Notes under the pieces: generated by a model
What the model was told of the DNA's origin: nothing
Seen by the model: only the letters and a program-made list of their open reading frames with translations
Database searches by the model: none
Position numbers and translations under genes: made by a program
Origin: Mycoplasma sp. Bg1
GTDB taxonomy: Bacteria; Bacillota_I; Bacilli_A; Mycoplasmatales; Hepatoplasmataceae
NCBI GenBank assembly: GCA_001641205.1
Contig: LSMX01000003.1
Span: 120,177-184,176, forward strand
DNA: 64,000 bases
Direction: 5' to 3'
Shown: one piece after another, positions 5,769 through 64,000 of the stretch
How the letters are laid out: every line of letters begins with the position of its first letter
How positions within the stretch are numbered: the first letter of the stretch is position 1

Positions 5769-6657
5769 GAATCCTTTTAATAGTTCGTAGTTTTGCAGAA
5801 CGAGATGCTTTGTTTTCTAGCAGTTCTTTTGTAGAAGGGTAAACTGTTCTTAGAGTATGATATCTATGCTGATTACCCATTTCTGAAATAATAATATCTT
5901 CTTTATTTTTTCAAAAAATGTTTTTTACAATCTTATCTTCTAAAGAATGAAAGGAAATAACTACACAAATTCCTCCAACTTTTAATAAACTTAATGCATC
6001 AATTAGTGAAGTTTCTAAAACTTCTAATTCTTTATTTACTTCAATTCTAATTGCTTGAAAAATATTTTTTGAAGGGTGTTTCTTTTTACTATAGCCCTTT
6101 ACATCTTTGATAATTTCATTTAATTGAATATTTGTTTTTATTTTTTCTATTGCTCTTTTTTCAACAATTTTTTTTGCAAGTGTTCTTGCCTGTTTTTCAT
6201 CACCAAATTTTCAAAAAATATCTGCAAGCTCTTTTTCAGAATAAGTATTTATTACTTCATAAGCACTAAGAGATTGATTTTGGTCCATTCTCATATCTAA
6301 TGTTGCTTCACCATGATAGGTAAACCCCCGACTTTCTGTTGTTAACTGAAAATATGAAGTTCCTAAATCATAAATAATTCCATCTATTTTAGAAATATTA
6401 TTATTTTCTAATTGTCTTTTTAAATTTTTGAAGTTATCATTAATAAAAATAATATTAGAATAATTTTTTAATTCTTTTTTGGCAAAGGTTAATGCTTCTA
6501 AATCTTGATCAAAAGCAATTAATCTTCCACCTTCTAATTTTTCTGCAATTAATTTTGCATGTCCACCAAGTCCAAGAGTTGCATCAACATAAACTCCTTT
6601 AGGATTAATTTTTAATTTATCAATTGCTTCCTTGCTAAGAACCGAATAATGTTTCAT
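5761..6657 (-). CDS. rsmH: 16S rRNA (cytosine1402-N4)-methyltransferase RsmH
   Basis: N-terminus MKHYSVLSKEAID..VYVDATLGLGGHA (SAM-binding motif). The C-terminus ..NKASRSAKLRTIKRIHD is reached by reading through TGA. The TAA at 5761..5763 was hand-checked. Confidence 0.9.
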
Positions 6658-40958: not shown

Positions 40959-41918
40959 TTATTTTTTAATTGTAGAAACTGCTTTTAGGGTTACTTCTTT
41001 TAAAGTAGAAACAGATTCAATAAATTGTTTTTTTTCTTTTTCTGAAAGATCTAATTCAAAAGTACGAATAATTCCTTCTTTTCCAATTAAACAAGGAATT
41101 CCTGCATAAGTTCCTTCCATCCCATATTCTCCAGAAAGAAGTGCTCCCGTTGCAAAGACTCTTTTTTCATCTCTTAAAATTGCTCTTGCAATATCAGTAA
41201 GGTTCATTCCAATTCCATAATAGGTTGCTCTTTTACGATCAATAATTTCATAAGCTTTTTTTCAAACAGTTTCATGAACTTTTGCAAGTTTTTCCTCTGT
41301 AAGTCCATATTTATCATATAGTGTTGATAGTTTAACTCCATTTAAAGTTGCAACTGAAAATGTTGAAACTGATGAATCACCATGTTCTCCCATTACATAA
41401 ATTCCAAAATCTCTTGGTGCTGCGTCTTCGATTAATTTAGATAATTCTAATTTTAATCTTGATGTATCAAGTGCACATGATGCTGAAATAACTTTACTTG
41501 GTTCAAATCCTGTAACTTGTTGAAAAACTGTAGTCATCACATCAACAGGATTTGAAGCAACAATTGTCACTCCTTCAAACCCATTTGCTTTAACTTGATC
41601 AGCAATTGATTTCATAATTTTGACATTATCTTCAACCATTGCAAGTCTTGTTTCACCTGGTTTTTGAGGTCTCCCTGCAGTAATTACAAGTAAATCTGCA
41701 TCTTTTACAAGTTCATAACCACCATTTTCAACAATATAATCTGTTGCTGTAGTTCCTCTTCCATCTTCAAGATCAAGTTTTTGACCATAAGCAACTTCTT
41801 CATTAATATCGATAATTCCATAATATTTTGCTAAATTTTGATTTGTTGCTGCATATAAGAATGACATCCCGACAAATCCCGCACCAATAAGCACTACTTT
41901 GTTTGTTGTATTTTTCAT
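40959..41918 (-). CDS. ldh: L-lactate dehydrogenase (canonical specificity loop)
   Basis: VVLIGAGFVGMS (Rossmann fold), loop ITAGRPQKPGETR (Gln102/Arg109 equivalents), LDTSRL, GEHGDS. Two same-frame pieces joined by TGA. Confidence 0.88.
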
Positions 41919-42087
41919 TTTTTCTCCAATAATAATTATATTTCTATTATATTACTAAATAATTAAGGAAATTTAAATATTTTAGATGGTTTGTTTTTTA
42001 TAAAAAAATAAAACAATTAAATAAAATAAATTTAATTTTTTTCTAATATTATTTAAATAAATTATTTAAATAAAGTAAGGGAAAAAC

Positions 42088-42321: not shown

Positions 42322-42542
42322 ATTGTTTAAACGAAAAGAAAAAATTAAAATATGAAACTAATTACAATCCTATTAATTTTAAAAATACTCAAAATTAATA
42401 AAATAATAGGATTAAATATACTGTTTTAAATTAAAACCCTCAAAACTTTAATTTTTTATTTTATAAATAGCCTCCAACAAGAAAGCACTTTATTTTTAGT
42501 ATAATTATATTATTATATTCACAAAATAAAGGAAAAATAACT

Positions 42543-42977
42543 ATGCCACGAAGAAGAAGGGGTAAACCCATTATGACAACTGCTGTAACTATGAGTGCAA
42601 TGTCAAATAGAAAAACAAATAAAATGCAACAACAGCAAATGCAACAACAACAAACTCAGCAAACTCAACAACAACAAAATTATGCTACAGCACAAGACCC
42701 AATGCAACCTGCAACTCCTGTTCAACCAGAAGTAGTTGCACCAATAAAAGAAGAAGAACAAGCAGATCAAATTAGAACTATTGCTTCTGCAATTTCACTT
42801 TATCGAAAAAAAGGTTTAAGTTTTGCAGAAATCTTTACCAAAGTTGAAGCTTATAATAAAGGTTTTAAAAGTGAAGAAGATTTTAAAAAAGGATATTTAG
42901 ACTTTGTAAATGAAGAAGCAATTACTAATCCTAAATGAGAATCTGTACTTGAATTTGAACTAGAGCACCAAGAATAA
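42543..42977 (+). CDS. Arg/Gln-rich protein with conserved C-terminal domain, paralog A (144 aa)
   Basis: MPRRRRGKPIMTTAVTMSAMSNRKTNKMQQQQMQQQQTQQ.. then IRTIASAISLYRKKGLSFAEIFTKVEAYNKGF..W(TGA)ESVLEFELEHQE. RBS aaaggaaaaa and a tataat box lie upstream. Confidence 0.7.
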
Positions 42978-43128: not shown

Positions 43129-44097
43129 TTAATTCTCTTCCCTAATTATAGAAAATGCTTTTAAGTTTAATTCTTTTAAAATTGAAATAGATTTAATAAA
43201 TTTAGCTTTTTCTTTTTCTGAAAGATCTAATTCGAAAGTTCTAATAATTCCTTCTTTTCCAATTAAACATGGAATTGCTGCATAAGTTCCTGCAATTCCA
43301 TATTCCCCCGAAAGAAGTGCTCCCGTTGCAAAAACTCTTTTTTCATCTCTTAAAACTGAACAAGCAATATCAACTAAAACCATTCCAATTCCATAACTAG
43401 TTAATCCTTTACGATTAAAAATTTCATAAGCTTTTTTTCAAACAGTTTCATGAACTTTAGCAAGTTTTTCTTCTGTAAGTCCATATTCTTCATATAATGT
43501 TGATAACTTAACTCCTTTTAATGTTGCAGCTGAAAATGCTGCAACAGAAGAATCTCCGTGTTCTCCCATTATATAAACATCAAAATCTTTTGGGGCTGCA
43601 TTTTCAATAAGTTTTGAAAGTTCTATTTTAAGTCTTGAAGAATCAAGAACACATGAAGCTGAAATTACTTTATTTGGTTCAATTCCAGTAATATGTTGAT
43701 AAATTATTGAAGCAGCTTCAAGTGGAGCTGAGGCAATAATAGTTATTCCTTTAAATCCGCTTGCTTTAACTTGAACTGCAATTGATTTCATAATTTTTAC
43801 AGTTCCTTCTAATAAATCATGTCTTGTTCCACCTGGTTTTAATGGTCCTCCCCCAGCAGCAATAATAAGTAAATCTGCATCTTTTAGAAGTTCATATCCA
43901 CCATCTTCTACAATATAATCACTTTCAATAGATCCTCTTCCATCTTCAAGATCAAGTTTTTGGCCATGAGCAAATTCACTTTTTAAATCAATAATTCCAT
44001 AATATTTTGCTAAATTTTGGTTTATTGCTGCATATAAAAATGATGTTCCTACATATCCAGCACCAATAACTACTACTTTATTTGTTGTATTTTCCAT
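43129..44097 (-). CDS. LDH-family 2-hydroxyacid dehydrogenase, variant specificity loop (paralog 2)
   Basis: VVVIGAGYVGTS, LDSSRL, GEHGDS, but the loop reads IAAGGGPLKPGGTR. That is one extra residue, Leu in place of Gln102, and Gly in place of the Glu before Thr-Arg. Confidence 0.8.
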
Positions 44098-44228
44098 TTC
44101 TACTCCTATTATAATTATTTTTTTAATCCTTAAAATTAATAAATATAAGACATTCTATGATCTTTATACCATTTTAAAATTTTTAAGTGAACTTTTACCT
44201 CTACTTAGGTTTTATTCCATAAATAACT

Positions 44229-45197
44229 TTAATTCATTTCTTCAATTATAGAAAGTGCTTTTACTTTTAAATCTTTTAAAACCAAAACAGATTTAATAAA
44301 TTGAGTTTTTTCTTTTTCTGAAAGTTCTAATTCAAAAGTACGAATAATACCTTCTTTTCCAATTAAGCAAGGAATTCCAGCATAAGTTCCTGCAATTCCA
44401 TATTCTCCTGAAAGAAGTGCTCCCGTTGCAAACATTCTTTTTTCATCTCTTAAAATTGAACGTGAAATGTCAACTAAAGTCATAGCAATTCCATAACAAG
44501 TTAATCCTTTACGATTAAAAATTTCATAACCTTTTCTTCAAACAGCTTCATGAACTTTAGCAAGTTTTTCTTCTGTAAGTCCATACTCATCATATAATGT
44601 TGAAAGTTTAACTCCTTTTAATGTTGCAACTGAAAAAGCAGAAACTGATGAATCTCCATGTTCTCCCATTACATAAATTCCAAAATCTTTTGGAGCTACA
44701 TTTTCAATAAGTTTTGAAAGTTCTAATTTAAGTCTTGAAGAATCAAGTGCACATGAAGCTGAAATTACTTTATTTGGTTCAAATCCAGTAACATGTTGAT
44801 AAATTGTTGTTGCTATATCAACTGGATTTGAAGCAATAACAGTTACTCCTTTAAAATCATTTGCTTTAACAGAAACTGCAATTGATTTCATAATTTTTGC
44901 GGTATCTTCAAGTAAATCAAGTCTTGTTCCGCCTGGTTTTAATGGCCCACCACCAGCAGCAATTATAAGCAAATCTGCATCTTTTACAAGTTCATAACCA
45001 CCATCTTCTACGATATAATCAGTTCCAATAGATCCTCTTCCATCTTCAAGATCAAGTTTTTGGCCATGAGCCATTTCTCTATTTAAATCAATAATTCCAT
45101 AATTTTTTGCTAAATTTTGGTTTATTGCTGCATATAGAAATGAAGTTCCTACATATCCGGCCCCAATAACTACTACTTTATTTGTTGTATTTTCCAT
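44229..45197 (-). CDS. LDH-family 2-hydroxyacid dehydrogenase, variant specificity loop (paralog 3)
   Basis: Same variant loop IAAGGGPLKPGGTR. Very similar to paralog 2 along its whole length. Confidence 0.8.
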
Positions 45198-45453
45198 TTT
45201 TTCCCCTCCAATAATTATATTTCATTATATTATTAAATATTTAACTGATTTAAAATATTTTAAAAAATCATTATACATAATTTATAAATTAAAAAAAACA
45301 AATTTATACTACAATAAAAAAATAAAATTAATAAAAACTTTAATTACATAAATAAGTTAAATTAATTTTAAAATAAACTTATTAATTGAGGAATAGATCT
45401 TATTTAGTATAATTTTATTATTATATTTATGAAATAAAGGAAAAAAAGTAATC

Positions 45454-45879
45454 ATGCCAAGAAGAAGAAGGGGAAGACCTCTTATGACAACCGCTGTAAC
45501 AATGAGTGCATTATCAAATAGAAAAACAAATAAAATGCAACAACAACAAATGCAGCAAGATCAACAAACGCAACAACAAAACTATGCAACAGCACAACAA
45601 CCAATGCAACCTGTTGCGCCTATTCAACAAGAAGTAGTTGCGCCAATACAAAAAGAAGAACAAACAGATCAAATTAGAACTATTGCTTCTGCAATTTCCC
45701 TTTATCGAAAAAAAGGATTAAATTTTGCAGAAATCTTTACTAAAGTAGAAGCTTATAATAAAGGCTATAAAAATGAAGATGACTTTAAAAAAGGATATTT
45801 AGATTTTGTAAATGAAGAAGCAATTAGTAACGCTAAATGAGAATCTGTACTTGAATTTGAATTAGAAAACCAAGAATAA
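45454..45879 (+). CDS. Arg/Gln-rich protein with conserved C-terminal domain, paralog B (141 aa)
   Basis: MPRRRRGRPLMTTAVTMSALSNRKTNKMQQQQMQQDQQTQQQ.. ..IRTIASAISLYRKKGLNFAEIFTKVEAYNKGY..W(TGA)ESVLEFELENQE. Its upstream region is homologous to that of paralog A. Confidence 0.7.
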
Positions 45880-45956: not shown

Positions 45957-46354
45957 CTAATATGTATGTGTTGCTTCTTTTCCTTCAAGAATATCAACAC
46001 CGTTTGAAGTTCCAATTCTACTTGCCCCAGCATTAATATATGCTTCAGCATCTTCGTAGGTTCTAACTCCACCTGCAGCTTTAATTTTTGTATCAGGATT
46101 AATATTATCTTTCATAATTTTTACTGCTTCTAAAGTAGCTACTGAACAATCAATTCCTGTAGAAGTTTTTACAAAATCTCATTTTGCATTACTTGCAATT
46201 CTTGATGCTTTTGCAATTTGATCATCGCTAAGAAGAGCAATTTCTAAAATAATTTTAATTGTTGTTCCTTCTGTTGCAGCTCTAATTGCTTTTAGCTCAT
46301 TTTCAACGTATTCTCAATCTCCTGATTTAATCATGGAAACATTAATTACATAAT
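45957..46354 (-). pseudogene. deoC 3' fragment (about 132 C-terminal codons), copy 1
   Basis: Near-identical (a handful of mismatches by eye) to 49854..50251 of the intact deoC, including the stop codon. Homology ends abruptly after ..aattacataat at 46354. No 5' part and no start codon. Confidence 0.85.
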
Positions 46355-46555
46355 TAAATCTATCTACTTCTTTTATAAAAGCACTTTTTTTACTATACAA
46401 ATTTTAGTATTATTATTTTTATTTCAAAAAAATTACAAAATAAAACTAAAAATACAAAAATGATGTTTGTAATTATTGTAATTTAGATGAAATTAATTAG
46501 ATTAATTGTTTTAATAGTTATTTTAATTTAAAAAAGAATCATTTTCTCAATAAAT

Positions 46556-47176
46556 TTAGTTATTTATAATATTAAATATTTTTCTTGCAAACTGAAAATA
46601 TTCTTCTGTAGGTATTATTTTTGTTATTGGAATATCATAATTACTATGTACAATTTTATTTCTTTCAGAAATTATTTTTTTTCAAAGTTCATTATCATTA
46701 TTGGTTAAATTTTCAAAATTATCAATAATTAAAGAATGATAAAAATGATTATTTTTATTTTTTGTATTTAACAAAATAGAAATATCTTTTTTAACATTAC
46801 AGTTATTTCAAGTTTTGTTATTTAAAAAATCACTAATAAGTTTTATAAATAATTTTTTATTAAAATCATCAATATCCTCTCTTAACAAAATTTTGCCAGT
46901 AATTCTACTTATTTTTTCTCTATTATTGATATTTTCATCACTTAAAGATCTTTCAAAAAAATATTCAGACATTTTTGAAATAATATTTTTATCTAAAAAT
47001 TTATAACTTTCATTTTGAATACTCATTAAAACAAAATTTTTTCATTTGGTTTCTATTTCAGATACAATAAAAATATAAAAATACTCCACAATTATTTTTT
47101 GTTTAGGTGTAGTTACATCAAAAGAACTATTTTTAAGTTTTTTTTCCAGATAATTTAAGATTTCTATGTTTTCCAT
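46556..47176 (-). CDS. HEPN-like protein (206 aa) with C-terminal R-x4-H motif
   Basis: ATG at 47176 lies 1 nt after the DUF262 stop. The C-terminus ..ELW(TGA)KKIISERNKIVHSNYDIP.. contains RNKIVH (Rx4H). Codons 46556..46700 were hand-translated. Confidence 0.5.
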
Positions 47177-47177
47177 T

Positions 47178-48407
47178 TTAAATAATTAAATAATCACTAA
47201 ATGCGGTAAAAATTTTAGTATATTTCAACATTAATTGATTATTATTTCCTGTTCCTATTTTCAAACTTAAAAAAAATTTTTTTTCTTTATCATTAATAAA
47301 AAGAGATTTATAAATTTCTTGAAATTGCTGTTTTGAAATTTTTTCAAAATCTAGATATTTAAATAAAATTAATGTTGCCTCTGCCAAAGAAATATTAATT
47401 TTATTATCAAAATTAAAAAAATTCTCATTTTTTGAATTAGAATAAATTCTAAATATTTTAATTCCATCAAAATATTCTTTTAATTTATACATTAGCTTAT
47501 TTAAATCATTAATAATTTGCTCATTTTTTTCAATAGAATTTTTTGATGCTAATTTCATATAATTGTTTATTAAATAAATAATTCTTCCATTATAATCCAA
47601 AATTTTAATAGAAATTTCATTAAAATTATTTCTACTAAGTCTTATTTTTTCATAAAAAGACAAATATCTAAAAATAAGTTCGGTGTTTTTCATTCTTTTA
47701 ACAAAAACAGAATTTAGTGTTAAGTTTTCAAAAACTTTTCACTCTAAATTATCATTAGTAAATTTTTTGATTTTAGAGTTTAAATCACTTCTATAAATTG
47801 CATTACGTAATTCTTGAGTATTTAATTTCATAGATCCTTGGTTTAATCTAGAAAAAATATCAAATTTTAAAGATTCATCAGATCCTTTTCTAATTCTTAT
47901 TGTTTGTAAAACTTGAGTTTTTAAATAATTTTGGACTCCTATATTTAATTCTTCAAATTTTTTGCCATTTAAATTTTCAAATGATTCTAAACCTCTTAAT
48001 TTTCATTCATTATGTAAAAATGTTTGAATGGTTGTTAATCTTTGGACACCATCTATAACGTCAAATTTTGAATTTGTAGTTTCAAATAAATAAACTGGAG
48101 GTATAGTAATATTAATTAAGAGTGATTCAATAAATTTTGCTCCATTTAATATTGATCAAACAAAATTTCTTTGAAATTCTGGACTAATATTTCAATCTTC
48201 ATCATCTAATCTTCTACAAATATCTTGCAATTCAATGTTGGTGGTATCTATTATTAATGATTTAGGTTTTCAACCTTTTTCTTGATTATTAGCTTCATCA
48301 CTATCAAATTCTTCTTCTTTTTCATCATAACCAGAGTTTTTTTCAAAATCATCATTTTCTTTAGTCAAAATTGGTGCAAACTCTAATTCCTTAATTTTAT
48401 TATTCAT
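47178..48407 (-). CDS. DUF262 (ParB/GmrSD N-terminal-like) domain protein, 409 aa
   Basis: ..NISPEFQRNFVW(TGA)SILNGAKFIESLLINITIPPVYLFE..FDVIDGVQRLTTIQTFL (QR..W and DGxQR motifs). Acidic N-terminal extension. No DUF1524/HNH-type C-terminal domain recognised. Confidence 0.7.
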
Positions 48408-48492
48408 AATATTCCTTTTTATAATTATATAATTTTAAATAAACTAATTTAAAATTACTTTATTATTTAAAATAAATTTTGCATTTTTATAA

Positions 48493-49853: not shown

Positions 49854-50516
49854 CTAATATGTGTGTGTTGCTTCTTTTCCTTCAAGAATATCAACACCGT
49901 TTGAAGTTCCAATTCTGCTTGCCCCAGCATTAATATATGCTTCAGCATCTTCGTAGGTTCTAACTCCACCTGCAGCTTTAATTTTTGTATCAGGATTAAT
50001 ATTATCTTTCATAATTTTTACTGCTTCTAAAGTGGCTCCTGAACAATCAATTCCTGTAGAGGTTTTTACAAAATCTCATTTTGCATTACTTGCAATTCTT
50101 GATGCTTTTGCAATTTGATCATCGCTAAGAAGAGCAATTTCTAAAATAATTTTAATTGTTGTTCCTTCTGTTGCAGCTCTAATTGCTTTTAGCTCATTTT
50201 CAACGTATTCTCAATCTCCTGATTTAATCATGGAAACATTAATTACATAATCAAGTTCATCAGCACCTCTTCTAATTGCATCTTGGCCTTCAAAAACTTT
50301 AGCTTCGGTAGTTTGAGTTCCATAAGGAAATCCAACTACAGCTGTAATTCCAATGTTATTTGCATGTAATCTTTCTTTTACATAGTCAATTCACATTGGG
50401 TGAATACATAATGTAATAAAATTTCATTTAATTGCATCTTCTACGTATTTATCTAAAATTTCTTTTGTTGAATCTCTTTTAATTAAAGTGTGATCAATAT
50501 ATCTATTTAATTCCAT
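49854..50516 (-). CDS. deoC: deoxyribose-phosphate aldolase
   Basis: MELNRYIDHTLIK.., CIHPMW(TGA).., VVGFPYG.., W(TGA)DFVKTSTG (Schiff-base Lys), AAGGVRT. 220 aa, with TAG at 49854. Confidence 0.9.
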
Positions 50517-50713: not shown

Positions 50714-52099
50714 TTAAAATTTTTGGAAATATTCTAAATCTATTCCGTTTAATTCTAATCGCTTATTAATATAATTCTTAGTTTCTGGTGTTAAAATTGT
50801 TGAAATTAGAGAATGTTCTAATTTTTCTGATTTAATTTGCTTAACAATTTCCCCATATTCATCCTTTTTAATTCAAATATTTCCCTCTTGATCAAAAACT
50901 AATATATTTTTATCAAATAATTTATGAATAGTTGGGCCTAGTAATAAACCATTTTCAGGATCATATTTTTCATCTTTATTACATTTTATAAAATCAACAA
51001 TATGAGAAGCTTCTATTGCATACGAATTTTTCATTCCTTTAATTAAATCATTTTTATTAATAAATTCTTGTTCATTAATTTCAATATATCTTTTAATATC
51101 ATTCAATAAAAGTTGACGATATTGTACTTGTCCTGGTCTACCATTATCATTTTTTATAAAAAATTCTAAAACTTTAGATTGAATTGTTAAAATTTCTACT
51201 TTTCAATCATTTAAATATTTTTCAAATAAAAAATCATTTAATTTATTAAAGATAGTCATTGCTAAATTTAAATCATTTTTAATTAAATTTTTAATTGTTG
51301 TTTGAGTTCCGAAATGTTTTCCAATAGAAGATTTTCCACTTTTATGTGTTTTAAATAATTCTGGAAGAGGAATTTTTTGGTTTTTTTGTTTTCTTAAAAT
51401 TACTACAATATCTAAGCAAACTGGAAAATTGCTATTACATAATTCATATAAAAAGAGTGCATGTAATGAAAAGAAAATATCTCTAATTGAATAACCCTTA
51501 ATATATTTTAGATTAAAATAATTTTTATAATTATTAACAAAATTAGATGCTAAATCAATCTTATCAATAATATAATCATCAATTATTTTTGATTTAAAAA
51601 TTAGATTAAAATAATTACTTGGAGCAAAATCTTTTTGAATTTCCAAATAACCCAAGCTTGCCATAACCTCTATAAATTGTCTTAGAGTTGATTTTGCAAT
51701 TAACTTTTTAAAATTTCTTCTATCATTAAAATAATCTTCTATTTTAAAAATTCACTCTCCCTCTTTTCCAATATAAAGAGCACTAGTTAAATAAGTTAAT
51801 TTTTGATCAACTCTTTTATAAATATTTAGATAATACCGTTTTTCTTTTTTAGTCTTTTTTTGTACTTTTAAAATTGATTCTTTTCATTCAAGAAAAATTT
51901 CTTCTTTTTCTAAATCAAGATTATAAGTTTTTAATAAATAGATAAACAAATTATTTATCCGACATAAATGAGTAAAAAAATCAGTTCCCATTGTTCAAAC
52001 AAATCCTCATTGATCTTTTTTAGTAATATCATCATTCATTTCAACTTGTTTTTGATAGATTGCTTTAATTTTAGTAATTTGATCTTTTGAAAATTCCAT
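50714..52099 (-). CDS. putative type II restriction endonuclease with C-terminal HNH (HNH_2-like) nuclease motif, 461 aa
   Basis: ATG at 52099 lies 1 nt after the methylase stop and is preceded by ggagga. C-terminal ..EASHIVDFIKCNKDEKYDPENGLLLGPTIHKLFDKNILVFD. Pieces 51203 and 50873 share one frame. Confidence 0.65.
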
Positions 52100-52100
52100 C

Positions 52101-53398
52101 TTATTCCTCCAAAGTAGACATATAGTAAAATATCATTTCGATGATATTTACTGCAATTGAATTTCCTGCCTGTTTATAAAGCTTTTCTCTTGCTTGATTA
52201 TCTGTCTTAGCTCGGTATTTTTTAGTAACAAGAAGCATCTCTTTTTTAGCACTTTGATACTGCTTTTCACTAAAACCCATAAGAAGATATGCTTCTCTTG
52301 GGGTAATAAATCTTCAATTAGTATAATCAACTCCATTATTATCAAATCTTTTATTATTAAAAGCAACTGATCCACAATTTGGTAATCTATCCTGTTTTGT
52401 TGTTACTGTTGGAATATGTTTTAAATTAATATCAATGCAAGGAGAAGAATCAATCATTCTTATTCTTGAAGGAGTATTTTTAATTTGTGCTCAAAGCGAT
52501 TCTTCAAAATCTTTATTAGAAAAATCTATTAATTTCTTAATAGGTTTTTTATTTTTTGGTTGATAAATTTTACAAGTATAGATTTTTTTTAAAATAATTT
52601 CAAGATCATCTCTTGTTCCTTTTCAAGAAACTATTTCATTATTAGGATCATAAATAGAAAAAGCATAAACACGGCGTCTTTTTTGGACCATTCCAAAATC
52701 ACTTGAATAGAGCATTCCCCAAATTGTTTTATAACCTAAAAGCTCTAATTGCTCCATCCAAGCATCAAAGTCTGCTCGATGTTGTTTTTGAACTAAATTA
52801 GGAACATTTTCAAGTAGGAGGAATTTTGGTAATAAATTTGGGCGTCTCTCTCTCTCTCTCTCTCTCTCTCTTCTTGAATTGCTTTAAGATTTATTAAAAC
52901 CTTTTCAATTTCAAGAAGTAACCCTGATCTGGTATGGGCTTTTATTCCCTCATTAAAGCCGTGAAAATTACCTGCAGTAGATAAATCAGTACAAGGAAAA
53001 GAATAAGTAAGCAAGTCTACTCCATTGTTATCTTCAATTATTTTTTTTATTCTAGTAGTTGAATCTACTATAGTTCCAATGTTACTAGCAACTTTGAAAG
53101 CTTTATATCAATCAAGTTTTACTTCTTTTTTAATTGTAGAAGTATTTAAAAAAGGTTTTGATCCATCAAGACTAAAAGTATTTTTTTTAATTCAATTATC
53201 AAGTTCATCATCAGTTGGAGTTTTAATCTTACTTCGATAATTTTTATAATGAATTGCAGCATAGGACTGAGCAGCAAAAACATCCCAATCGGATGTTCCT
53301 ATAATTTCATAATCAAGAATGCCTTTACTCTTTAAGTTTTTTAGGGCAGTATTTTGTGCTCCAATTCCACTAAAAGTTTCAATAACTTTAAATTTCAT
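52101..53398 (-). pseudogene. DNA (cytosine-5)-methyltransferase, out of frame at an internal (GA)13 tract (candidate phase-variable gene)
   Basis: 5' frame: MKFKVIETFSGIGAQ (motif I), SFPCTDLS (motif IV). After the repeat, the motifs continue in another frame: RPNLLPKFLLLENVPNLV (VI), QKRRRVY (VIII), ITPREAYLLMGF, GNSIAV (X). Total length is 1298 nt, which is not a multiple of 3. Confidence 0.85.
52845..52870 (-). repeat. (GA)13 dinucleotide tract inside the methyltransferase ORF
   Basis: Thirteen tc units on the plus strand, counted directly. 12 or 15 units would restore a single 431/433-aa frame. Confidence 0.95.
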
Positions 53399-53528
53399 AT
53401 AAAAAAATTATATACAGAGGCAAAACTAAAACTGCTGTGAAAAAAATAATATAATGATTTAATAATATAGAAATTCAATTTTTAGAAATATTGATAATAA
53501 ACCTTTTACCACATAAATTGTGTTTATC

Positions 53529-53543
53529 TTTTTTTTTTTTTTT
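53529..53543 (+). promoter_or_regulatory. T15 homopolymer in the divergent promoter region between the methyltransferase and surface-protein gene 1
   Basis: 15 consecutive T, counted. It ends 65 nt upstream of the ATG at 53609 and is followed by tataaat (53557..53563). Confidence 0.5.
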
Positions 53544-53608
53544 GTTATTCCATTATTATAAATTTATAGATAAATAATAAATTTTAAGAAAGGAATAAGT
53601 AAATAAAT

Positions 53609-54733
53609 ATGAAGAAACAATATTTAATTGGTTTACTAGGACTTACAATAATATTTACCCCAGTTGCAAATAGTTTATTAAGTACCAATTCAAAATTATT
53701 TAATTCTACATATACAAATAATCAAATACAAGAAGAATCTATAATTAACGAAGAAAATAGCCAAGTAATTGTAAAAGATCTTGATAATGATGGAAAAGCA
53801 AGTCAGGGTGATCAAATTGATGAAATACAATTTAGTGCTAATTATGATGAATTTTATCCTCTTTATGAAGATAAATCTAAAACTACTTCATCTAATGAAT
53901 ATGGATTAAATATTTATCCAGAAAATTCACCTAATACTGTAAAACCTTTTTATAGTATTTCTTATAATCAAATTGATGAGTTAAATCAAAATCAAAATGT
54001 AGACTTTTTAAATTTTGATTTTAATTCTACTAATAATCCAACTTGAAAAATTTGAGATGCAAAACTTCCTGATAGTAGTCAAGAATTTATCATAACTGCA
54101 GAAAGCAAAAAAGATAATCATCAAGAAAAAATAATAGAAAATAATATTGGTGAGGTTTCAATTACACCATATATAAAGGATGAAAATGACTGAAGCGAAC
54201 CAAAAGTTTATGATGCAAAAGTAACCGAGAATCCAACTGGTGCATTTATGAACCCACAAGCAACTATCTCCTATGAAGTAGATTATGGTAATAATGGAGG
54301 TGACCGTGGTGGAAAAAAATATCAATTGACAAAACTAGAAATCATTAATATAAACGGTACTGAAATTAAAAATGGTACAAAATATGCAGACAAAGCAAAC
54401 CAAGGTAGCATTGGAGATGATGATTGATTGATAATACTAACTCCTAATACATATTATGATTTATATATGAAGGCAATTTTTCATGACCCTGATGATAAAA
54501 ATGCTGAAGGAATTACTCAAACAGTAAAATTTGATGATGATAGTGGCAAATTTGATACTTTTGATGATAAAGATCCTGATCCCACACCGCCCATTCCCAC
54601 ACCGCCCATTCCCACACCACCTGGTCCTTCTAGTAGTAATACAATGATAATGATTGGAATAATAATTGGAGTTATACTCTTTGTTGGAATTATTTCTTTC
54701 ATCGGATATTATTTATATAAAAAAAATAAATAA
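53609..54733 (+). CDS. surface protein family member 1 (374 aa): signal peptide, ectodomain, Pro/Thr stalk, C-terminal TM anchor
   Basis: MKKQYLIGLLGLTIIFTPVANS.. (no lipobox Cys), DLDNDGKASQGDQIDE, PTPPIPTPPIPTPPGP, then IMIGIIIGVILFVGIISFIGYYLYKKNK. Pieces 53609 and 54428 share one frame and are joined by TGA. Confidence 0.75.
54581..54620 (+). repeat. 15-bp tandem repeat encoding the PTPPI stalk (about 2.7 copies)
   Basis: cccacaccgcccatt cccacaccgcccatt cccacaccac. Confidence 0.85.
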
Positions 54734-54752
54734 TAAAGTTAAAAATAACATT

Positions 54753-54782
54753 AAAAAAAGTAGAGATATTTCTACTTTTTTT
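54753..54782 (+). terminator. rho-independent terminator after surface gene 1
   Basis: aaaaagtaga gatatt tctacttttttt. Confidence 0.6.
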
Positions 54783-54821
54783 AATTTTACTATTCATTAT
54801 GTTTTTTATTAATTGGAGTTT

Positions 54822-54995
54822 TAATCTTACATCAATTATTATAATAAATCACAACATTAAGTTGAGCAACAAAAACATTCTACTTAAAATATTTTTATAA
54901 TTTTGAAATAAAAAAATACCTTTATTCTTTAAGTTTTTTAAAGCAGTATTTTGTGCTCTAATTCTGCTAAAAATTTCAAGAACTTTAAATTTCAT
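54822..54995 (-). pseudogene. decayed copy of the methyltransferase 5' end
   Basis: MKFKVLEIFSRIRAQNTALKNLKNKG.. versus MKFKVIETFSGIGAQNTALKNLKSKG of the full gene. Internal deletions, with motif I destroyed. Homologous to about 53214..53398. Confidence 0.8.
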
Positions 54996-55193
54996 ATAAA
55001 AAATTATATGTAAAAGTAAAGATAAAACTATTGTATATAATGATTTAATAATATAGAAATTCAATATTTAAAAACATGATAATAAATCTTTTACCACATA
55101 AATTGTGTTTATCTTTTTTTTTTTTTTTGTTATTACATTATTATAAATTTATAGATAAATAGCAAATTTTAAGAAAGGAATAAGTAAATAAAT
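54996..55193. repeat. duplicate of the 53399..53608 divergent intergenic/promoter region
   Basis: Same sequence blocks (..taatatagaaattcaat.., ..ttaccacataaattgtgtttatc-Tn-gttatt.., aagaaaggaataagtaaataaatATG). Confidence 0.85.
55113..55128 (+). promoter_or_regulatory. T16 homopolymer upstream of surface-protein gene 2
   Basis: 16 consecutive T, counted. Same position as the T15 tract in the paralogous promoter. Confidence 0.5.
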
Positions 55194-56651
55194 ATGAAGA
55201 AACAATATTTAATTGGTTTACTAGGACTTACAGTAATATTTACCCCACTTGCAAATAGTTTATTAAGTACCAATTCAAAATTATTTAATTCTACATATGC
55301 AAATAATCAAATACAAAAAGAATCTATAATTAATGAAGAAAATAGCCAAGTAATAGTTAAAGATCTTGATCATGATGGAAAAGTAAGTCAAGGAGATCAA
55401 ATTGATGAAATACAATTTAGTGCTAATTATGATGAATTTTATCCTCTTTATGAAGATGAAACTAAAACTACTTTATCTAATGAATATGGATTAAATATTT
55501 ATCCAAAAAATTCGCCCAATACTATAAAACCTTTTTATAGTATTTCTTATAATAAAATTAATGAGTTAAATCAAAATCAAAATGTAGACTTTTTAAATTT
55601 TGATTTTAATTCTACTAATAATTCAACTTGAAAAATTTGAGATGCAAAACTTCCTGATAGCAGTCAAGAATTTATTATAACTGCAGAAAGTAAAAAAAAT
55701 AATAATCAAGAAAAAATAATAGAAAATAATATTGGTGAAGTTGCAATTTTATCATATGTAAACAATGCAAATGGGCAAGATAACCCAACAATAACTTCTG
55801 CAAGAGTAACCAAAAAAACATTTTTTTCTACATACATAAATGTTAAGGTTGACTATGAAGTAGATCTTGGCAATAATGGAACTAGTAGAATTAATAATAA
55901 ATACAATTTAACAGAAATTATAATCACTAATAAATTGGATCATAATAATCCAGTATATTCTGTGGATAAATCTAGTGCTAAGGGCCACTTAACTTTTGAC
56001 CTGCCACTTGGTGTAGACTATGATTTAAGCATGACAGCAATTTTTGATGACCCCGCGAGTTCTTCTAAAAAATCTGATACAGCTGACATCATAGGTGGTA
56101 ATATTGTAGATACTGAAAGAAAGCCTAAATTTGATTATCCAACTGCAGTTAAAATTGATACGAAAAATAATATTTTAGAAATTAAGGGAGAAATTTCTAC
56201 TAATGGTTCTAAAATAAATTCATTGTGGCTTACAAATGAAAATCATGATGTTGAAACTTGAATATATAAATATGATGATAAAGGAGATACATTTTATTAT
56301 GATATCTGGACTCCTGATTACACTGAAAATACTACAGATAGTCTTAAAAATTATAATTTAGGAGTGTGATACACCCTAAATGTAAATACCGATTATTATT
56401 CTATTGGTCTTTGACAAGTTTTAGAAAAAGATAGAACAACCGGTGAAGATTTAAGTTATTTGGAAGATGATTCTTATTATCAAGGCAATACTTCTGGAGG
56501 AGATGATTCTTCTGATGGAGGCGGTTCTGAAGGAGGTGGTTCTTCCAACAATAATAATACAATGATAATAATTGTAATAATAATTGGAATTGTACTTTTT
56601 GTTGGAGCTATTTCTTTCATCGGATATTATTTATATAAAAAAAATAAATAA
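55194..56651 (+). CDS. surface protein family member 2 (485 aa)
   Basis: N-terminal 145 aa are nearly identical to member 1. Gly/Ser/Asp-rich stalk (GGDDSSDGGGSEGGGSS) and the same C-terminal anchor (IGIVLFVGAISFIGYYLYKKNK). Pieces 55194, 55935 and 56460 share one frame. Confidence 0.75.
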
Positions 56652-56670: not shown

Positions 56671-59600
56671 ATGAAGAAGCAATATTTAATTAGTTTATTA
56701 GGACTATTTGCAATATTTGCTCCGCTTGGAAATGGAATAGTAAACACAAAATTAAATTCTTCAACTAATGAAAAAACTACTGGGATAGCGATGAAAGAGA
56801 CTAGTAAAATTTCTCTAATTGATAGTGATGGTTCAAAGGATGTAAGTACAAGAGATAAAATAAATTCTATTTCATTTGATGGAGAATGAGTTTTTGAAAA
56901 TTGAGGAGGAAAGGAATATTATGATGTAGATGATCCTTCTAAAGAAGGTTTAAATTTATATGGTTCATCAAAACCAGATGAACCTTTATTAGAAGTTTCC
57001 TATAAAACCCTTAAGAACAAAGGTACTTATGATTTAAGTGATGACTCTGATATTTTAACTTATAGTATAGAAGCAAATTCTTTAAATAATACAGAAGTAA
57101 AAATATGAGGTTATGAAATTGCTATAGGAGAAACTTTTGAAATAACTGCAGATTATAATTCAACTAAAGAACCAAAAAATATAAAAGAGGATAATCTTGG
57201 AACAATTGAATTGACAATATCTGATCCAAGCACAATTAAACGAACTAGCAATGTTGAAGTTACCATAACTCCACTTGAAGCAAAAGTAGATTATAAAGTA
57301 ATTCCAGGATTAGATACTAGTGGTAATCTTGAAACAGTTGAATTTGTAAGATGAATGAATGGATCATGAGAACTTGCAAGTTCAGAAAAAGAAGAAGATA
57401 CTTTAATTGCTACAAGTCCTAAATTAGAATCAGATGTAAATTATAATAATACAACACTTATAGCTAGAATGAGTGGTGGATGAACTGAATCAGTAGAAGT
57501 TGACCCTTTTAATACAATTTCAAAAAATGAGCCATCCACAATCGACCGAATTGGTAGAGCCCAAGAAACTAGTTCTACTGAAGCAAATGTTAATTATGAA
57601 GTAGATCCCGGAAAAGATGTTAATGGCCAAGATTTAACAGTTATTGAAGTTAAATGAATGGATGGTACAGAAAGGCTTGCAACTTCAACAAATACAAAAG
57701 GTACTTTAATCGCCACTGATTTAATACCAAATCACTCATATAAAAATACAATAATAGTTGCAGAAATGAGTGATGGAAGTTTTACTAATGATGCTAAAAT
57801 TAATGACTTTAAAACTAAAAAAGGTAAAACAAAATCTTCAATTAAAGAAGTTGGTACTGTTAATGTAACTGGGCCCAACACTGCGAATGTTGGTTATGAA
57901 GTAACTCCCGGAACTGATAAAAATGGTGATCTTTTAACAGTTGAAAAAGTAGTTTGAATAAAAGGTGCACAAACAGATGGTAAACCAGAACTTGCAACAG
58001 ATGATGAGGACAATGGAATTGATGGAATTTTAGAAACCGATAGTTTAAACCCAAGTCAGAAATATGAAAAAACAACACTTAAAGCCAAAATGAGTGATAA
58101 TACATGGACTGACCCTGCTCAAGTTGAAACTTTTACAGCAGGTCAAGATATATCAACAATTGAACAAGTTGACAATGTTAGTGTAACTAGTTATAACTCT
58201 GCAAGTGTCAAATATAAAATACACTGTGGAAAGAATGTTGATGGCGAAGATTTAACAGTTAAAGAAGTGCAATGAGTAGAACATTCAGGACAAACAAAGC
58301 TTGCTTCTGAAAAAACAGAGGATGAAAATGGTGTTTTATACACCACTAATTTAGAAGGAAATTTATCTCATGATACAACACTTAAAGCCCAAATGAGTGA
58401 TTATTCGTGAATTGAAATTGATGTTAGATCTTTTGAAACCCCTGCATGTAATGAACCATCGACAATTGAAAAGGTTGATGACATTAATGTAACCAGTTCT
58501 ACTGAAGCAAATGTTAGTTATAAAGTAAACCCTGGAAAAGATGTTTATGGTCACCCAGTAACAGTTAAAAAAGTAAGATGAATGGATGATAATAAAGAAC
58601 TTACAGCTTCACTAGATACAGAAGGCACTTTATATGCACATGATTTAAGCCCAAATCAAACATATTATAATACATATATAATTGCTGATATGAATGCTGG
58701 AGAACAAACAAATACAGTTTTAGCAGGAACATTTACAACAGAACCAGGTAATGTTAATTCAAAAATTAAGGAAGATGGAGAAGTTGAGGTTACTAGCTCC
58801 ACAGAAGCAAATGTCAACTATACTGTAACACCAGGAAAAGATGTCGATGGAAATGATGTAACAGTTGAAAAAGTAGAATGAATAAATGGTGAAGACATTC
58901 TTGAAACAAATAAAGGTAATGGAATTGATGGAATTTTAGAAGCAGATGAATTAAGTCCAAATCAATCCTATAATAATACAAAAATAATTGCTTATATGAG
59001 TGATGGAACCAAAACAAGACCTGTTAAAATAGAACCATTTCATGTATTACCTGGTGATGAACCTTCAGAACTTAATAGTGATGGAAAAGTTGATATAACT
59101 AGTTCTACAGAAGCAAATGTTAATTACACTGTAACACCAGGAAAAAATGTTGATGGAAAAGATGTAACAGTTGAAAAAGTAGAATGAATAAATGGTGAAG
59201 AAATTCTCGCAATAGATAAAGGTAATGGAATTGATGGAATTTTAGAAGCAGATGAATTAAGTCCAAATCAACCCTATAATAATACAAAAATAATTGCTTA
59301 TATGAGTGATGGAACCAAAACTAATGTAATTAATGTTGGTTCATTTCAAGCATGACCTGGTGATGAACCATCAACAATTAAACAAGATGGAATAGTTAAT
59401 GTAACTAGCTCTACTGAAGCAAATGTTAACTATACTGTAAGACCAGGAAAAGATGTTGATGGAAATGGCTTAACAGTTATTAAAGTTAAATGAATGAATG
59501 GTGATGATATACTTGCAACTTCAACAGAAGCATCTGGAAATTTATCAACTAATCAACTAATTGCAGAACAAATTTATGATAATACAACAATAGTTGCAGA

Positions 59601-60156
59601 AATGAGCAATGGAACTTCAACTAATATTATTGAGGTTGATCCATTTCTAGCACATCCAAGTACACCAGTTAATAAGCCAACTGCAATTAATATTGATGAA
59701 CCAAATGGAATTTTACAAGTTGAAGGAAATATTACATTAAATGAAGCAACTGCAAAATCAATAGATGTTAATATTATTAATGAAAAAGGCGACATTGTAA
59801 CAACAGGTTGTGAAATTATTGATAATGGTGATAGTATTTCTTATAGTGTCTTTACTGATCAATATAATGGAAATATAGATAATTATAGATTACAAATTAC
59901 TTATGAAATTGATGGTAAAAAACAAGAACCACTTGAAAATGAATATATAGATATTCAAGAACCAAAAAACATAACAAATGAAGATGCAGATTTATCTAAT
60001 TTAATAGACAATGATGATGGCGATGATAATAATGGTGAGACTGGTAATACAAGTAGTAGTAAACTTGGATTAATAATAGGTATTGTGGCAGTAATCACAA
60101 TTTTATTTTCTGCAGTAATGGGATTTTTCTTATTTATAAAACTTAAAACTAAATAA
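56671..60156 (+). CDS. giant surface protein family member 3 (1161 aa) with tandem beta-rich repeats and C-terminal TM anchor
   Basis: MKKQYLISLLGLFAIFAPLGNG.., DSDGSKDVSTRD, repeats, then acidic DNDDGDDNNGE and the anchor LGLIIGIVAVITILFSAVMGFFLFIKLKTK. All pieces (57658, 58090, 58582, 58996, 59494) share the frame of ATG 56671. RBS aaagggaaaa. Confidence 0.75.
57352..59790 (+). repeat. about 7.5 tandem coding repeats of 300-318 bp (about 102 aa) in surface gene 3
   Basis: Unit boundaries fall at in-frame TGA(Trp) codons 57352, 57655, 57955, 58273, 58579, 58879, 59185 and 59491. Consensus: W-x-[DN]-G..LA...G.L....L.PN..Y.NT.I.A.MSDG..T....F.....PS.I...G.V.VTSSTEANVNYTVTPGKDVDG.D.TV.KV. Confidence 0.85.
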
Positions 60157-60170
60157 ATATTAATAATATT

Positions 60171-60200
60171 AAAAAAAGTAGAAATATTTCTACTTTTTTT
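60171..60200 (+). terminator. rho-independent terminator after surface gene 3
   Basis: aaaaagtagaaat atttctactttttttt, paralogous to the hairpin at 54753..54782. Confidence 0.6.
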
Positions 60201-60201
60201 T

Positions 60202-60355
60202 ATTCAACTTTAAAGAATATTGTTAGTTGGAGTTTTAAGCTTATTTCAATAATTATTATAATAAATTGTAATACAGGGTTGAGTAGCAAAAACATCCTAG
60301 TTGGATATTCAATAATTTCGCAATCAAGAACGGCTTTGTTTTTTAAGTTTTTTAG
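60202..60355 (-). pseudogene. second decayed fragment of the methyltransferase 5' region
   Basis: ..agttggagttttaagcttatttcaataatt..gagtagcaaaaacatcctagttgga..caatcaagaacggctttgttttttaagttttttag aligns with 53190..53345. No start codon. Confidence 0.7.
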
Positions 60356-62221: not shown

Positions 62222-64000
62222 TTAATATTTATCTCCTCAATATTTTTTAACTATTTGTGATATTTCAGTTGATCTTTTGAGAATATTATCAATATTAAAA
62301 TCTATAACATCTAATTTAGTTAAAACTCCATTTATTCCATCAAGAGTTAATGATTTAGCTTCATTATTTATAGTATTACAATATTCTCTAATATTATCTT
62401 TATATAGTAAACTTCTTTTAGAATTTTTAGCAACAAAATAATTTCCAATCATATCTATATATTCAGGATATTCTGATTTTATTTCATCATATGAAATTTC
62501 ATCTGTTTCATTATTTAATTGATTAATAATTTCTTCTGTATAATTTGGCGGCAATAATTGAAAAGCATTTAATAAACTATTATTATTGCTAAAATTGTTT
62601 TCAATTGTAGACAATATTGTTTTACACATATTGCTACTATCTATTGGCCGTTTTGCAATAAAATTAATAAATGTATTTTCAGGAATCATTTGAAATTGTA
62701 AATCTATATCATTTACAAGAAAATTTCATAAATCTTTTGGAATTTTGATTTCATTAGTATTAATTGCTTTTATAACTTTATATACATATTTTCCAAGTGA
62801 AGCTAATCTATCTCCAGAAATACTTCTTCTAATATAATGAATTTCCATAATTTTAAGCATTTCACTAAAATCATTATCATTATTAATTTTTAATAATTTT
62901 GAATCAAATTGATCAAAAGTTCCATTGATTAAAATTAAGTTAGAGATAATTGGCAAAATAATTGAATTTGACATAATTATTTTAGCATCATTATAAAATG
63001 GTTTTAAAACATCAATTTTTTCAAAATTATGAATATTACTTGCAAGAATAAATACTTCTAAATATTTTCCTAAATTACTAATAAAATTTTCAAAATTTTC
63101 AAATGAAGTAATTTTATTATTTACATCTACATAATTTTTTACAAAATAATGTTTAAATCTTTTATAAATTGTTAAATCATTTCTTCATTCATATATATTA
63201 TTAGAAACATTTAAATAAAATACAAAAAAATCATCTTGAGCACGTTCAATAGTAGATTTTGTATAATAATTTTCAAATTTAACTTGAATATGATTTTCAA
63301 ATAAATTAATTATTTTCAAATCATTTTCTCTATAAAGATTTTCATCAATAGAGCTTAATAAAAAATTTTTAATTTTGTCATAATTTGTTAACTGTTTAGA
63401 TTTTGAATTTAAATTTTCAAAAATTTCAAATTCATTAATATCCTTTTCAAACCATATAATACCCACTTCAAGTTTTGATAAGGCACAAAGTAAATTGATA
63501 ATATAATCAGAAGCATCAGCGTTTTCATTTATTTTTGAGAAAATGTAATTTTTCATATAATTATAATTTTGATAAACTGAACTTTCCTTATATTGTCTAT
63601 TTGTATATATAGAATCATTTAGTAGAACTTTTTCATCACCTAATAAATAATATTTCAAAAGATTTTGTGTTCTTTCATTATTAATTCTATTTTTCAAAAA
63701 ATTAATTAACAAAGAATTTTCAGTATTAAATAATTCATTTAATAGTTTACTAGATGTAATTTTGTTTTTAAGACAAACATCATAAATTGCTCTTAACAAT
63801 AAAAGAATTGTTGTTATTCTTTGTTGACCGTCCATAATGGAAAAAGAATTTTCTTTTTCTGAATTTCTTCCAAAACTTAGAACTCCGAAAAAATATGAAA
63901 AAATTGTTTTTTCATTATTTATAATTCCTTCTAAATCAAAAAGTAATTCTTCAATATTGGATCTTGATCAATCATAATTTCTTTGATATGGTGGTACAAA
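62222..64000 (-). CDS. large DUF262-family protein, 5' end beyond the window (at least 592 aa)
   Basis: ..VPPYQRNYDW(TGA)SRSNIEELLFDL.. and SIMDGQQRITTILLL (DGQQR). Pieces 63185, 62726 and 62237 share one frame. I translated the 62975..63184 gap codon by codon and it is open. TAA at 62222. Confidence 0.7.

Follow-up and report, generated by a model that had tools for sequence, protein, structure and literature searches.

A stretch of 64,000 bases of Mycoplasma sp. Bg1 (GenBank assembly GCA_001641205.1, contig LSMX01000003.1, positions 120,177 to 184,176; G+C 26%), referred to here as the window, carries on its minus strand two abutting genes, one for a C5-cytosine DNA methylase with a perfect (GA)13 repeat in the middle of its coding sequence, and one for a protein ending in an HNH nuclease module. 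The two genes probably form a single module, in which the methylase is toggled by slippage of the (GA)n tract and the HNH partner depends on the methylase being ON. According to this proposal, slipped-strand mispairing would switch methylase expression at a presumably length-tolerant linker between catalytic motifs IV/V and VI, and switching may well be ongoing within populations. The abutting HNH gene would encode a functional nuclease partner, the dependence of which could arise from translational coupling across the 1-nt junction or from the two proteins acting together. The whole module would then be under the control of one repeat, and cells in the OFF state would escape killing. Mid-gene poly(GA) and poly(G) switches in C5 methylases of Mollicutes are already published; what is new is a repeat-driven methylase switch in an uncultured, invertebrate-gut lineage of Mollicutes, the Hepatoplasmataceae, and the value added lies in the evidence of selection and in a clearer view of the conserved nuclease partner.

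The methylase gene and its repeat tract

The genes of the window are coherent only under genetic code 4, in which TGA encodes Trp, and fall into fragments under table 11. With code 4, the methylase gene extends on the minus strand from an ATG at 53398 to 52101. Its tract, which reads (TC)13 on the plus strand, is far beyond chance: across the 64,000 bases no other dinucleotide repeat reaches five units. With the assembled 13 units, translation gives a 201-residue product ending at a stop codon at 52795-52793. When unit numbers were modelled, 9, 12 or 15 units gave a single open reading frame (ORF) of 429, 431 or 433 residues, respectively, terminating at 52103-52101, and the other numbers gave only products of 198-203 residues. 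Translated in frame, the tract yields an (ER)n linker that joins motifs IV/V to motif VI. The assembled 13-unit allele is OFF and the loss of one unit would turn it ON; as in contingency genes with intragenic repeats, changes in unit number toggle the gene between an intact ORF and a truncation. A first-pass annotation, made from the sequence alone, had read the frames in this way (a stop at 52793 with 13 units, and 431 or 433 residues with an (ER)n linker restored by 12 or 15), and every coordinate it gave proved correct when the window sequence was read again. If the TATAAT hexamer upstream of the ATG served as a −10 box, as is possible, the transcript would be leaderless or have a short leader.

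The same annotation had all ten motifs of a C5 methyltransferase split between two frames at the tract. The split stands for the five diagnostic motifs, which were checked one by one, the others not having been checked individually: motifs I (FSGIGAQ) and IV (FPCTDLS) lie upstream of the tract, and motifs VI (ENV), VIII (QKRRR) and X (GNSI) lie downstream of it in the other frame. All five fall in invariant columns of the methylase family alignment (A1; the alignment of the partner family is A2), and in the restored 12-unit frame they follow one another in order on one polypeptide, as in C5 methyltransferases. The restored protein matches Pfam PF00145 (E = 1.9e-40) and TIGR00675 (dcm; E = 4e-34, 118.7 bits versus a cut-off of 100.65). 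Its nearest solved structure is M.MpeI, a CpG methylase from Mycoplasma penetrans (E = 6e-31 with the single sequence), to which a profile built from the family of 29 homologues aligns end to end (positions 2-421; E = 7e-70), followed by M.HhaI (E = 2e-19). Judged by full-length similarity, which places it with the M.SssI/M.MpeI type, the protein is an M.MpeI/M.SssI-like C5-cytosine DNA methyltransferase. The best PADLOC match is the full-length 'orphan MTase' model, the score against the NCBIfam subfamily model is below its cut-off (45 versus 93 bits), and the 5' fragment matches NCBIfam NF045953 ('DCM_methyl_Nterm') weakly.

The target-recognition region, TPSR...TVTTKQDRLPNCG, is found within the 3' half, before motif X. 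The pattern conserved in the family, TPSR...TVTTKQDRxPNxG, has no correspondence to M.MpeI residues, and the target-recognition half alone gave no match in the PDB at E up to 1. In the window CpG is strongly depleted (observed/expected, 0.34; for GpC, 1.35), and no avoidance of 4-mer palindromes was found there beyond this depletion. A CG target specificity is possible and compatible with the CpG depletion, which is not diagnostic of it.

Evidence that the locus is maintained was obtained by comparison with Mycoplasma sp. Bg2, the closest public sequence to the window. Bg1 and Bg2 both represent short-read metagenome-assembled genomes of Hepatoplasmataceae from the stomach of the deep-sea isopod Bathynomus, with a published average nucleotide identity (ANI) of 84.2% (PMC10928387), and the tract lengths compared come from these two draft assemblies. 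Contig58 of Bg2 shares with the window, in synteny and at 82-86% identity, the tract, the 3' half of the methylase, the partner gene, deoC and ldh, and the methylase orthologue is approximately 85% identical to that of the window (approx. 15% nucleotide divergence). The Bg2 tract is (AG)17 versus 13 units in the window; neither allele is in frame, the wrong frames being different ones, and a change of one unit would bring each to the open frame (13 to 12 in the window, 17 to 18 in Bg2). For the out-of-frame 3' half, the ratio of nonsynonymous to synonymous substitution rates (dN/dS) versus Bg2 is 0.20, at a dS of 0.48. Its shifted frame has no stop in 247 codons, as opposed to 9-24 stops in the other frames, and a single indel, of 3 nt and in frame, separates it from Bg2. 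Because the ratio is low, stops are absent and the only indel preserves the frame, the 3' half bears the signature of a sequence translated in the shifted frame for most of its history.

The repeat also recurs in relatives. In those 51-65% identical in protein sequence, (AG)n occupies, as in the window, the linker that separates motifs IV/V from VI: locus L132 has (AG)14, which is in frame and ON and encodes protein P0001 with RERERERE; L129, with (AG)16, is OFF, the frameshift dividing its gene between two ORFs; the tract of L130, of at least 26 AG units, lies at the contig edge; and in L133 the arrays are compound, with 30, 10 and 27 units. More distant Mollicute members of the methylase clade carry (GA)33 near residue 85 (L098, ON), (AG)28 near residue 70 (L044, ON), (AG)18 near residue 70 (L060, in frame up to where the contig stops), (AG)19 near residue 350 (L048, OFF) and G10 (L007, ON). 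Length polymorphism among relatives with ON and OFF alleles both represented, and purifying selection on the sequence downstream of the tract, are as expected of contingency genes. Since length polymorphism, purifying selection and recurrence at the same linker are found together, the methylase locus is, as far as such comparisons can tell, a maintained on/off switch and not a dead pseudogene, and the switching by tract slippage proposed at first sight is well supported by the 17 versus 13 units, the selection and the ON and OFF alleles of the relatives. That tracts were gained independently at more than one site speaks for selection acting on switchability as such.

Table 1. Features of the methylase and partner locus (positions in the window).
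Feature	Position	Strand	Description
Perfect (GA)13/(AG)13 simple sequence repeat	52845..52870	-	Regex count; frameshift switch
Methylase 5' fragment, assembled OFF allele	52793..53398	-	Code-4 translation, 201 aa, motifs I and IV
Methylase 3' half, other frame	52101..52844	-	Motifs VI, VIII and X and target-recognition region; stop 52103-52101; zero stops within, versus 11 and 24 in the two remaining frames
TATAAT hexamer, possible −10 box	53407..53412	-	Sequence match only; 8 nt upstream of the methylase ATG
Partner gene, 461 aa	50714..52099	-	ATG 1 nt after the methylase stop
GGAGGA, Shine-Dalgarno-like	52105..52110	-	In the last methylase codons, 5 nt before the partner ATG
HNH_2 catalytic module	50855..51043	-	Residues ~353-415; H366, N383, H392

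The partner gene and its pairing with the methylase

The downstream HNH gene had been described as intact and as having its own ggagga ribosome-binding site, and both statements hold. The partner matches Pfam PF13391 (HNH_2) with E = 1e-7, and the three catalytic residues are conserved across alignment A2. Its dN/dS versus Bg2 is 0.18, a value denoting purifying selection, and with the catalytic residues intact it makes the inactive nuclease initially suggested among the solutions of the paradox discussed below unlikely. The N-terminal region of approximately 340 residues gave no match in Pfam, PDB-profile or Foldseek searches. An exhaustive search of 1.84 billion proteins yielded, beside generic HNH matches, full-length relatives with 12 representatives (30-37% identity), and a scan of the Joint Genome Institute (JGI) metagenomes with the partner family returned generic HNH modules only. 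When 12 members of the family were compared with Pfam at E up to 1, HNH_2 was the only domain found, with no modified-base reader domain (EVE, SRA or other); no helicase or ATPase domain was found in the partner with Pfam. The match to the PADLOC REase_II model is confined to the HNH module.

A single-sequence AlphaFold model of the partner was unusable (predicted local distance difference test score, pLDDT, 33), so that an alignment-based model (pLDDT 78.8) was used. With Foldseek it retrieved HNH modules only, with VcaM4I at the top (E = 1.4e-4), TagI weaker, and viral HNH endonucleases, and its N-domain gave no fold match in two Foldseek libraries. At the level of profiles the HNH module matches the HNH domain of VcaM4I with E = 3.7e-10. 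The partner also matches NCBIfam NF045952 (MAG4270_fam) with 41.0 bits (E = 1.2e-10), over the C-terminal 210 residues only and below the cut-off of 53. The partners of approximately 415 residues found in L048 (66.9 bits) and L007 (53.1 bits) pass this threshold and that of L044 (51.8 bits) just misses it. When the window's partner family was aligned with these three proteins using hhalign, a probability of 99% was obtained (E = 3e-18, 354 columns). On this profile evidence, the partner is distantly homologous, over its full length, to the putative restriction endonucleases of the 'MAG4270' family, lying outside the curated threshold.

Methylase and nuclease genes are conserved as an adjacent, co-oriented pair, as in Type II restriction-modification systems, in the window, Bg2, L098/L099, L129, L130 and L083, and in L044, L048 and L007 the methylase is paired with a MAG4270-like partner. 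At the six loci in which the junction can be read (window, Bg2, L098, L129, L130 and L132), the spacing between stop and start is invariably tight, ranging from a 12-nt gap to a 23-nt overlap and often being an overlap of 17-23 nt. In Mycoplasma agalactiae, MAG4270 adjoins MAG4250/MAG4260, the two halves of a CpG methylase pseudogene, which, together with the profile homology, indicates that the gene pair is conserved across Mollicutes.

Cells in which the methylase is switched off should be killed by a free-standing restriction enzyme encoded next to it. Yet four OFF alleles (window, Bg2, L129 and L048) are accompanied by an intact partner, which argues against an independent classical restriction enzyme. 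The partner is also intact beside three ON alleles (L098, L044 and L007), which argues against a nuclease attacking its cognate methylated sites. Because alleles of both kinds are accompanied by an intact partner, the simplest reconciliation is that the expression or the activity of the partner probably requires the methylase to be ON. The tight junctions would fit translational coupling, or the assembly of a complex by analogy with Type III systems. Coupled expression, one of the solutions envisaged when the paradox was first noted, is thus favoured, or else dependence on the methylase itself, by the tight junctions in 6/6 loci and by the partner being intact beside ON and OFF alleles. The initial description of the locus as a restriction-modification operon is sustained as regards the conserved, tight pair, and is plausible but unproven as regards function, the HNH_2 module being nearest to modification-dependent enzymes. 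With an intact nuclease beside both ON and OFF alleles, the question of how cells survive without the protecting half becomes addressable in a compact two-gene system.

A second type of partner was also encountered. In L002 (3589-6156), L133 (1094-3592) and L134 (3264-5762) a GmrSD_N+GmrSD_C nuclease of 850-890 residues abuts the methylase stop, with a 1-nt gap in L133 and L134, and in L002 an N-terminal extension of approximately 240 residues precedes the GmrSD_N domain. The N-terminal motif ST.RQ..E....LG of these GmrSD-type partners resembles the N-domain of the HNH family. An N-domain common to the two types of partner is not established, hhalign giving a probability of 3% when one sequence was used and of 50% when three were used, over approximately 30 columns.

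Points against the proposed module and rival explanations

Several observations weigh against the module as proposed. The assembly graph branches at the tract, and the exact unit counts could be consensus choices; furthermore, the 5' half differs from Bg2 at 1/527 nt, so that selection is measurable on the 3' half only. Motif IV reads PCT in the window (codons 52985-52993) and, identically, in Bg2, whereas it is PCQ in the other loci in which it was found (L132, L098, L044, L060, L048, L007 and L002), and the replacement of the near-universal PCQ might reduce methylase activity. With respect to coupling, the partner has its own canonical GGAGGA, and no mRNA structure masking it was found (121-nt fold, −14.2 kcal/mol; z = −0.28 versus shuffles). 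A scan for promoters and terminators between 50500 and 53650 gave 18 promoter-like sites versus 22.7 expected, and in such AT-rich DNA an internal promoter is possible. Finally, the nuclease module of the partner resembles modification-dependent enzymes (VcaM4I and TagI), and some members of the clade pair the methylase with a GmrSD-type nuclease, of a Type IV family; module and GmrSD partners alike would be a poor fit for a classical restriction enzyme.

The latter features are accommodated if the partner nuclease depends on, or senses, modification or requires the methylase protein in order to work, with a Type III-, Ssp- or Pgl-like logic in place of that of Type II. The methylase switch would remain, and the paradox would be gone because OFF would be the harmless state. 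That the only solved relatives of the nuclease module, VcaM4I and TagI, are both modification-dependent, that a full GmrSD_N+GmrSD_C partner sometimes occurs in the same clade (L002, L133 and L134) and that, of four Hepatoplasmataceae-type alleles that could be scored, three are OFF beside an intact partner would all agree with this explanation. It is nevertheless held to be unlikely, given that the similarity is limited to the HNH module, with no EVE, SRA or other reader domain detectable, and that the best PADLOC match of the module is a Type II REase model. Moreover, the three ON alleles with an intact partner would be suicidal if cognate methylated sites were cut, and the link between the N-extension of the GmrSD partners and the N-domain is borderline (50%, 31 columns).

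A different kind of objection concerns the frameshift itself, which could be an artefact of assembly or of sequencing, or a consensus chosen arbitrarily, the true dominant allele being in frame (12 or 15 units) or the junction between the 5' and 3' parts being chimeric between strains. The sources are short-read metagenome drafts, the Bg2 contigs break at the tract with a 127-nt overlap that equals the k-mer shared by the 13- and 17-unit alleles, other assemblies (L099 and L130) also break inside their tracts, and the 5' half is 1/527 nt from Bg2 when the remainder is approximately 85% identical. However, the window and Bg2 contig58 each span the tract with their own strain-specific 3' flank, a dinucleotide tract of 26-34 nt is well below short-read length, and frameshifted alleles occur in unrelated assemblies (L129 and L048), which makes an artefact quite improbable; a slippage-prone switch would stand even with a wrong unit count. 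As to a plain decaying pseudogene, inactivated by a repeat-length mutation and no longer used, which the first-pass annotation had kept as its alternative, the assembled alleles of the window and of Bg2 are indeed both out of frame and the PCT in motif IV is atypical. The dN/dS of 0.20 over a dS of 0.48, with zero stops in the 247 codons of the shifted frame, the perfect and uninterrupted repeat, the distance of one unit from ON in both OFF alleles and the in-frame allele at the same site in the relative L132 make such decay very improbable. Hardly credible is a true split methylase, in which the fragments made in the OFF state would form an active enzyme, so that protection would persist and no real OFF state would exist. 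A 'C5-methyltransferase N-terminal subunit' family does exist in NCBIfam, with the weak NF045953 match mentioned above, and complementation between fragments of M.SssI and M.MpeI has been studied (PMC5944983). Against it, the 3' frame is free of ATG, GTG and TTG codons from the upstream stop (52883) to motif VI, and its first Met, M214, follows ENV, so that a C-terminal fragment containing motif VI cannot be initiated; on this ground a split-subunit methylase was rejected. In M. agalactiae, split alleles are unmethylated at CG (PMC9465063).

Known systems and genomic surroundings

The published systems closest to the methylase are the CpG methylases of Mollicutes. In M. agalactiae all such genes have a mid-gene poly(G), the length of which varies within cultures (Dordet-Frisoni et al. 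2022, PMC9465063), and switching, in the genes MAG4250/MAG4260, is backed by fragment-length evidence (PMC9465063). A passage of the same paper, citing Wojciechowski et al. 2013, reports mid-gene poly(GA) in the homologues of M. pulmonis and M. crocodyli (PMC9465063), and its authors conclude that the conservation of switching suggests an important role (PMC9465063). As in the window, these enzymes belong to the M.MpeI clade, the repeat lies in mid-ORF, upstream of the C-terminal catalytic/recognition part, and many alleles are truncated; MAG4270, the neighbouring gene in M. agalactiae, has given its name to the family with which the window's partner shares distant homology over its full length. 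Unlike them, the window's methylase has a target-recognition segment that does not align with that of M.MpeI, and its host belongs to the invertebrate-gut Hepatoplasmataceae, whereas the published hosts are vertebrate pathogens. The published CpG methylase is treated as an orphan, whereas that of the window has a conserved, tightly abutting nuclease partner, which is not discussed in the literature on these 'orphan' methylases. The partner gene puts the orphan status of Mollicute CpG-type methylases in question. A broader generalization, put forward as a tentative possibility, is that phase-variable 'orphan' M.MpeI-like methylases are the switchable half of an unrecognized two-gene defence module. 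Its partner would have an HNH_2 or GmrSD nuclease head, as in modification-dependent enzymes, behind a novel N-terminal domain, and would act only with, or by sensing, the methylase or its 5-methylcytosine mark, so that a single tract could turn the whole module on or off without self-killing.

For the logic of a methylase-dependent partner, the closest precedent, by analogy and not by family membership, would be MmyCI, the Type III system found in M. mycoides subsp. capri, the mod gene of which is OFF with (AG)12 and ON with (AG)10 (PMC3498834). There, mod lies upstream of res and overlaps it, and restriction needs Mod, so that the OFF state is harmless (PMC3498834). The MmyCI Mod is an N6-adenine methylase and its Res an ATP-dependent helicase-nuclease; the window has instead a C5-cytosine enzyme and a 461-residue HNH_2 protein without a helicase domain and, having neither an N6-adenine Mod nor a helicase-type Res, falls outside Type III. 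From an unrelated bacterial lineage, hpyAVIBM of Helicobacter pylori is a phase-variable orphan C5 methylase with an AG repeat in its ORF, changes in the length of which truncate the protein (PMC3411764). It is the remnant of a system with an HNH-type cognate nuclease (MnlI), and an effect on the transcriptome is documented (PMC3411764). What it shares with the window is that the ORF of a C5 methylase contains an AG dinucleotide repeat; the H. pylori gene differs in that its AG units number only 4-5 and that a functional nuclease partner is missing. VcaM4I (PDB 6YEX) and TagI (PDB 6GHS), which among solved structures come nearest to the nuclease module of the partner, carry EVE or SRA readers, whereas the partner has an unrelated, unmatched 340-residue N-terminal domain.

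Public sequence data treat loci of this kind badly. Short-read assemblies break inside the (AG)n tracts (L099 1-22, L130 1-52 and the end of L001) and gene callers using table 11 cut the methylases short at TGA codons (e.g. P0033), so that these loci are systematically fragmented in databases; in annotation they are routinely split into 'N-terminal' and 'C-terminal' methylase fragments. Between the window and Bg2 there is also a jump in identity. The 5' half plus 43 nt upstream (52871-53441 versus L001 5958-6554 and L081 1-100) shows the 1/527 coding differences already mentioned, more than 12 kb on the 3' side of the tract are at 82-86% identity, equal to the genome-wide ANI, and the point of change coincides with the repeat. 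The Bg2 contigs that break at the tract are contig58 and, at its end, contig14, and their 127-nt overlap is the k-mer common to the 13- and 17-unit alleles. The jump is to be explained either by the repeat having been the site of recent recombination or gene conversion, or by an artefact of co-assembly.

Upstream of the methylase, the segments 53315-53791 and 54912-55376 are copies of a duplicated unit (89-97% identity, 1585 nt apart) that runs from the 5' start of the methylase across the divergent intergenic region into the 5' end of a lipoprotein gene. The duplication leaves two degenerate copies of the methylase start beside lipoprotein genes, with remnants at 54690-55067 and approximately 60191-60355. 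Two lipoprotein genes that are paralogues, at 53609-54733 and 55194-56651, each have a T15 homopolymer (53529-53543 and 55114-55128, respectively) approximately 65 nt upstream of the ATG, in the stretch that they have in common with the divergent methylase promoter; these homopolymers are candidates for promoter-spacer phase variation of surface lipoproteins. A third lipoprotein gene, at 56671-60156 on the plus strand, encodes 1160 residues with approximately eight tandem repeats of about 300 nt (100 residues) at 57264-59625, at 61-82% identity; the signal peptide MKKQYLI.LLGL is common to this protein and the two smaller lipoproteins upstream of it.

The methylase module itself lies within a defence island, with minus-strand genes at 47178-48434, 46556-47185 and 62222-64000. 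It contains a GmrSD_N/DUF262 protein matching PADLOC NsnA (E = 1.5e-65), a weak HEPN-like neighbour and a second GmrSD_N protein, which runs off the end of the window. Downstream of the module there are three lactate/malate-dehydrogenase-like paralogues (40959-41951, 43129-44154 and 44229-45224), one full and one partial deoC-like copy (45957-46403 and 49854-50516) and two copies of a small Q-rich ORF (42471-42977 and 45397-45879), and this duplicated region appears to be a plasticity zone. The longest G/C run of the window is a C8 homopolymer at 5142-5149, inside the ORF at 4602-5816 on the minus strand.

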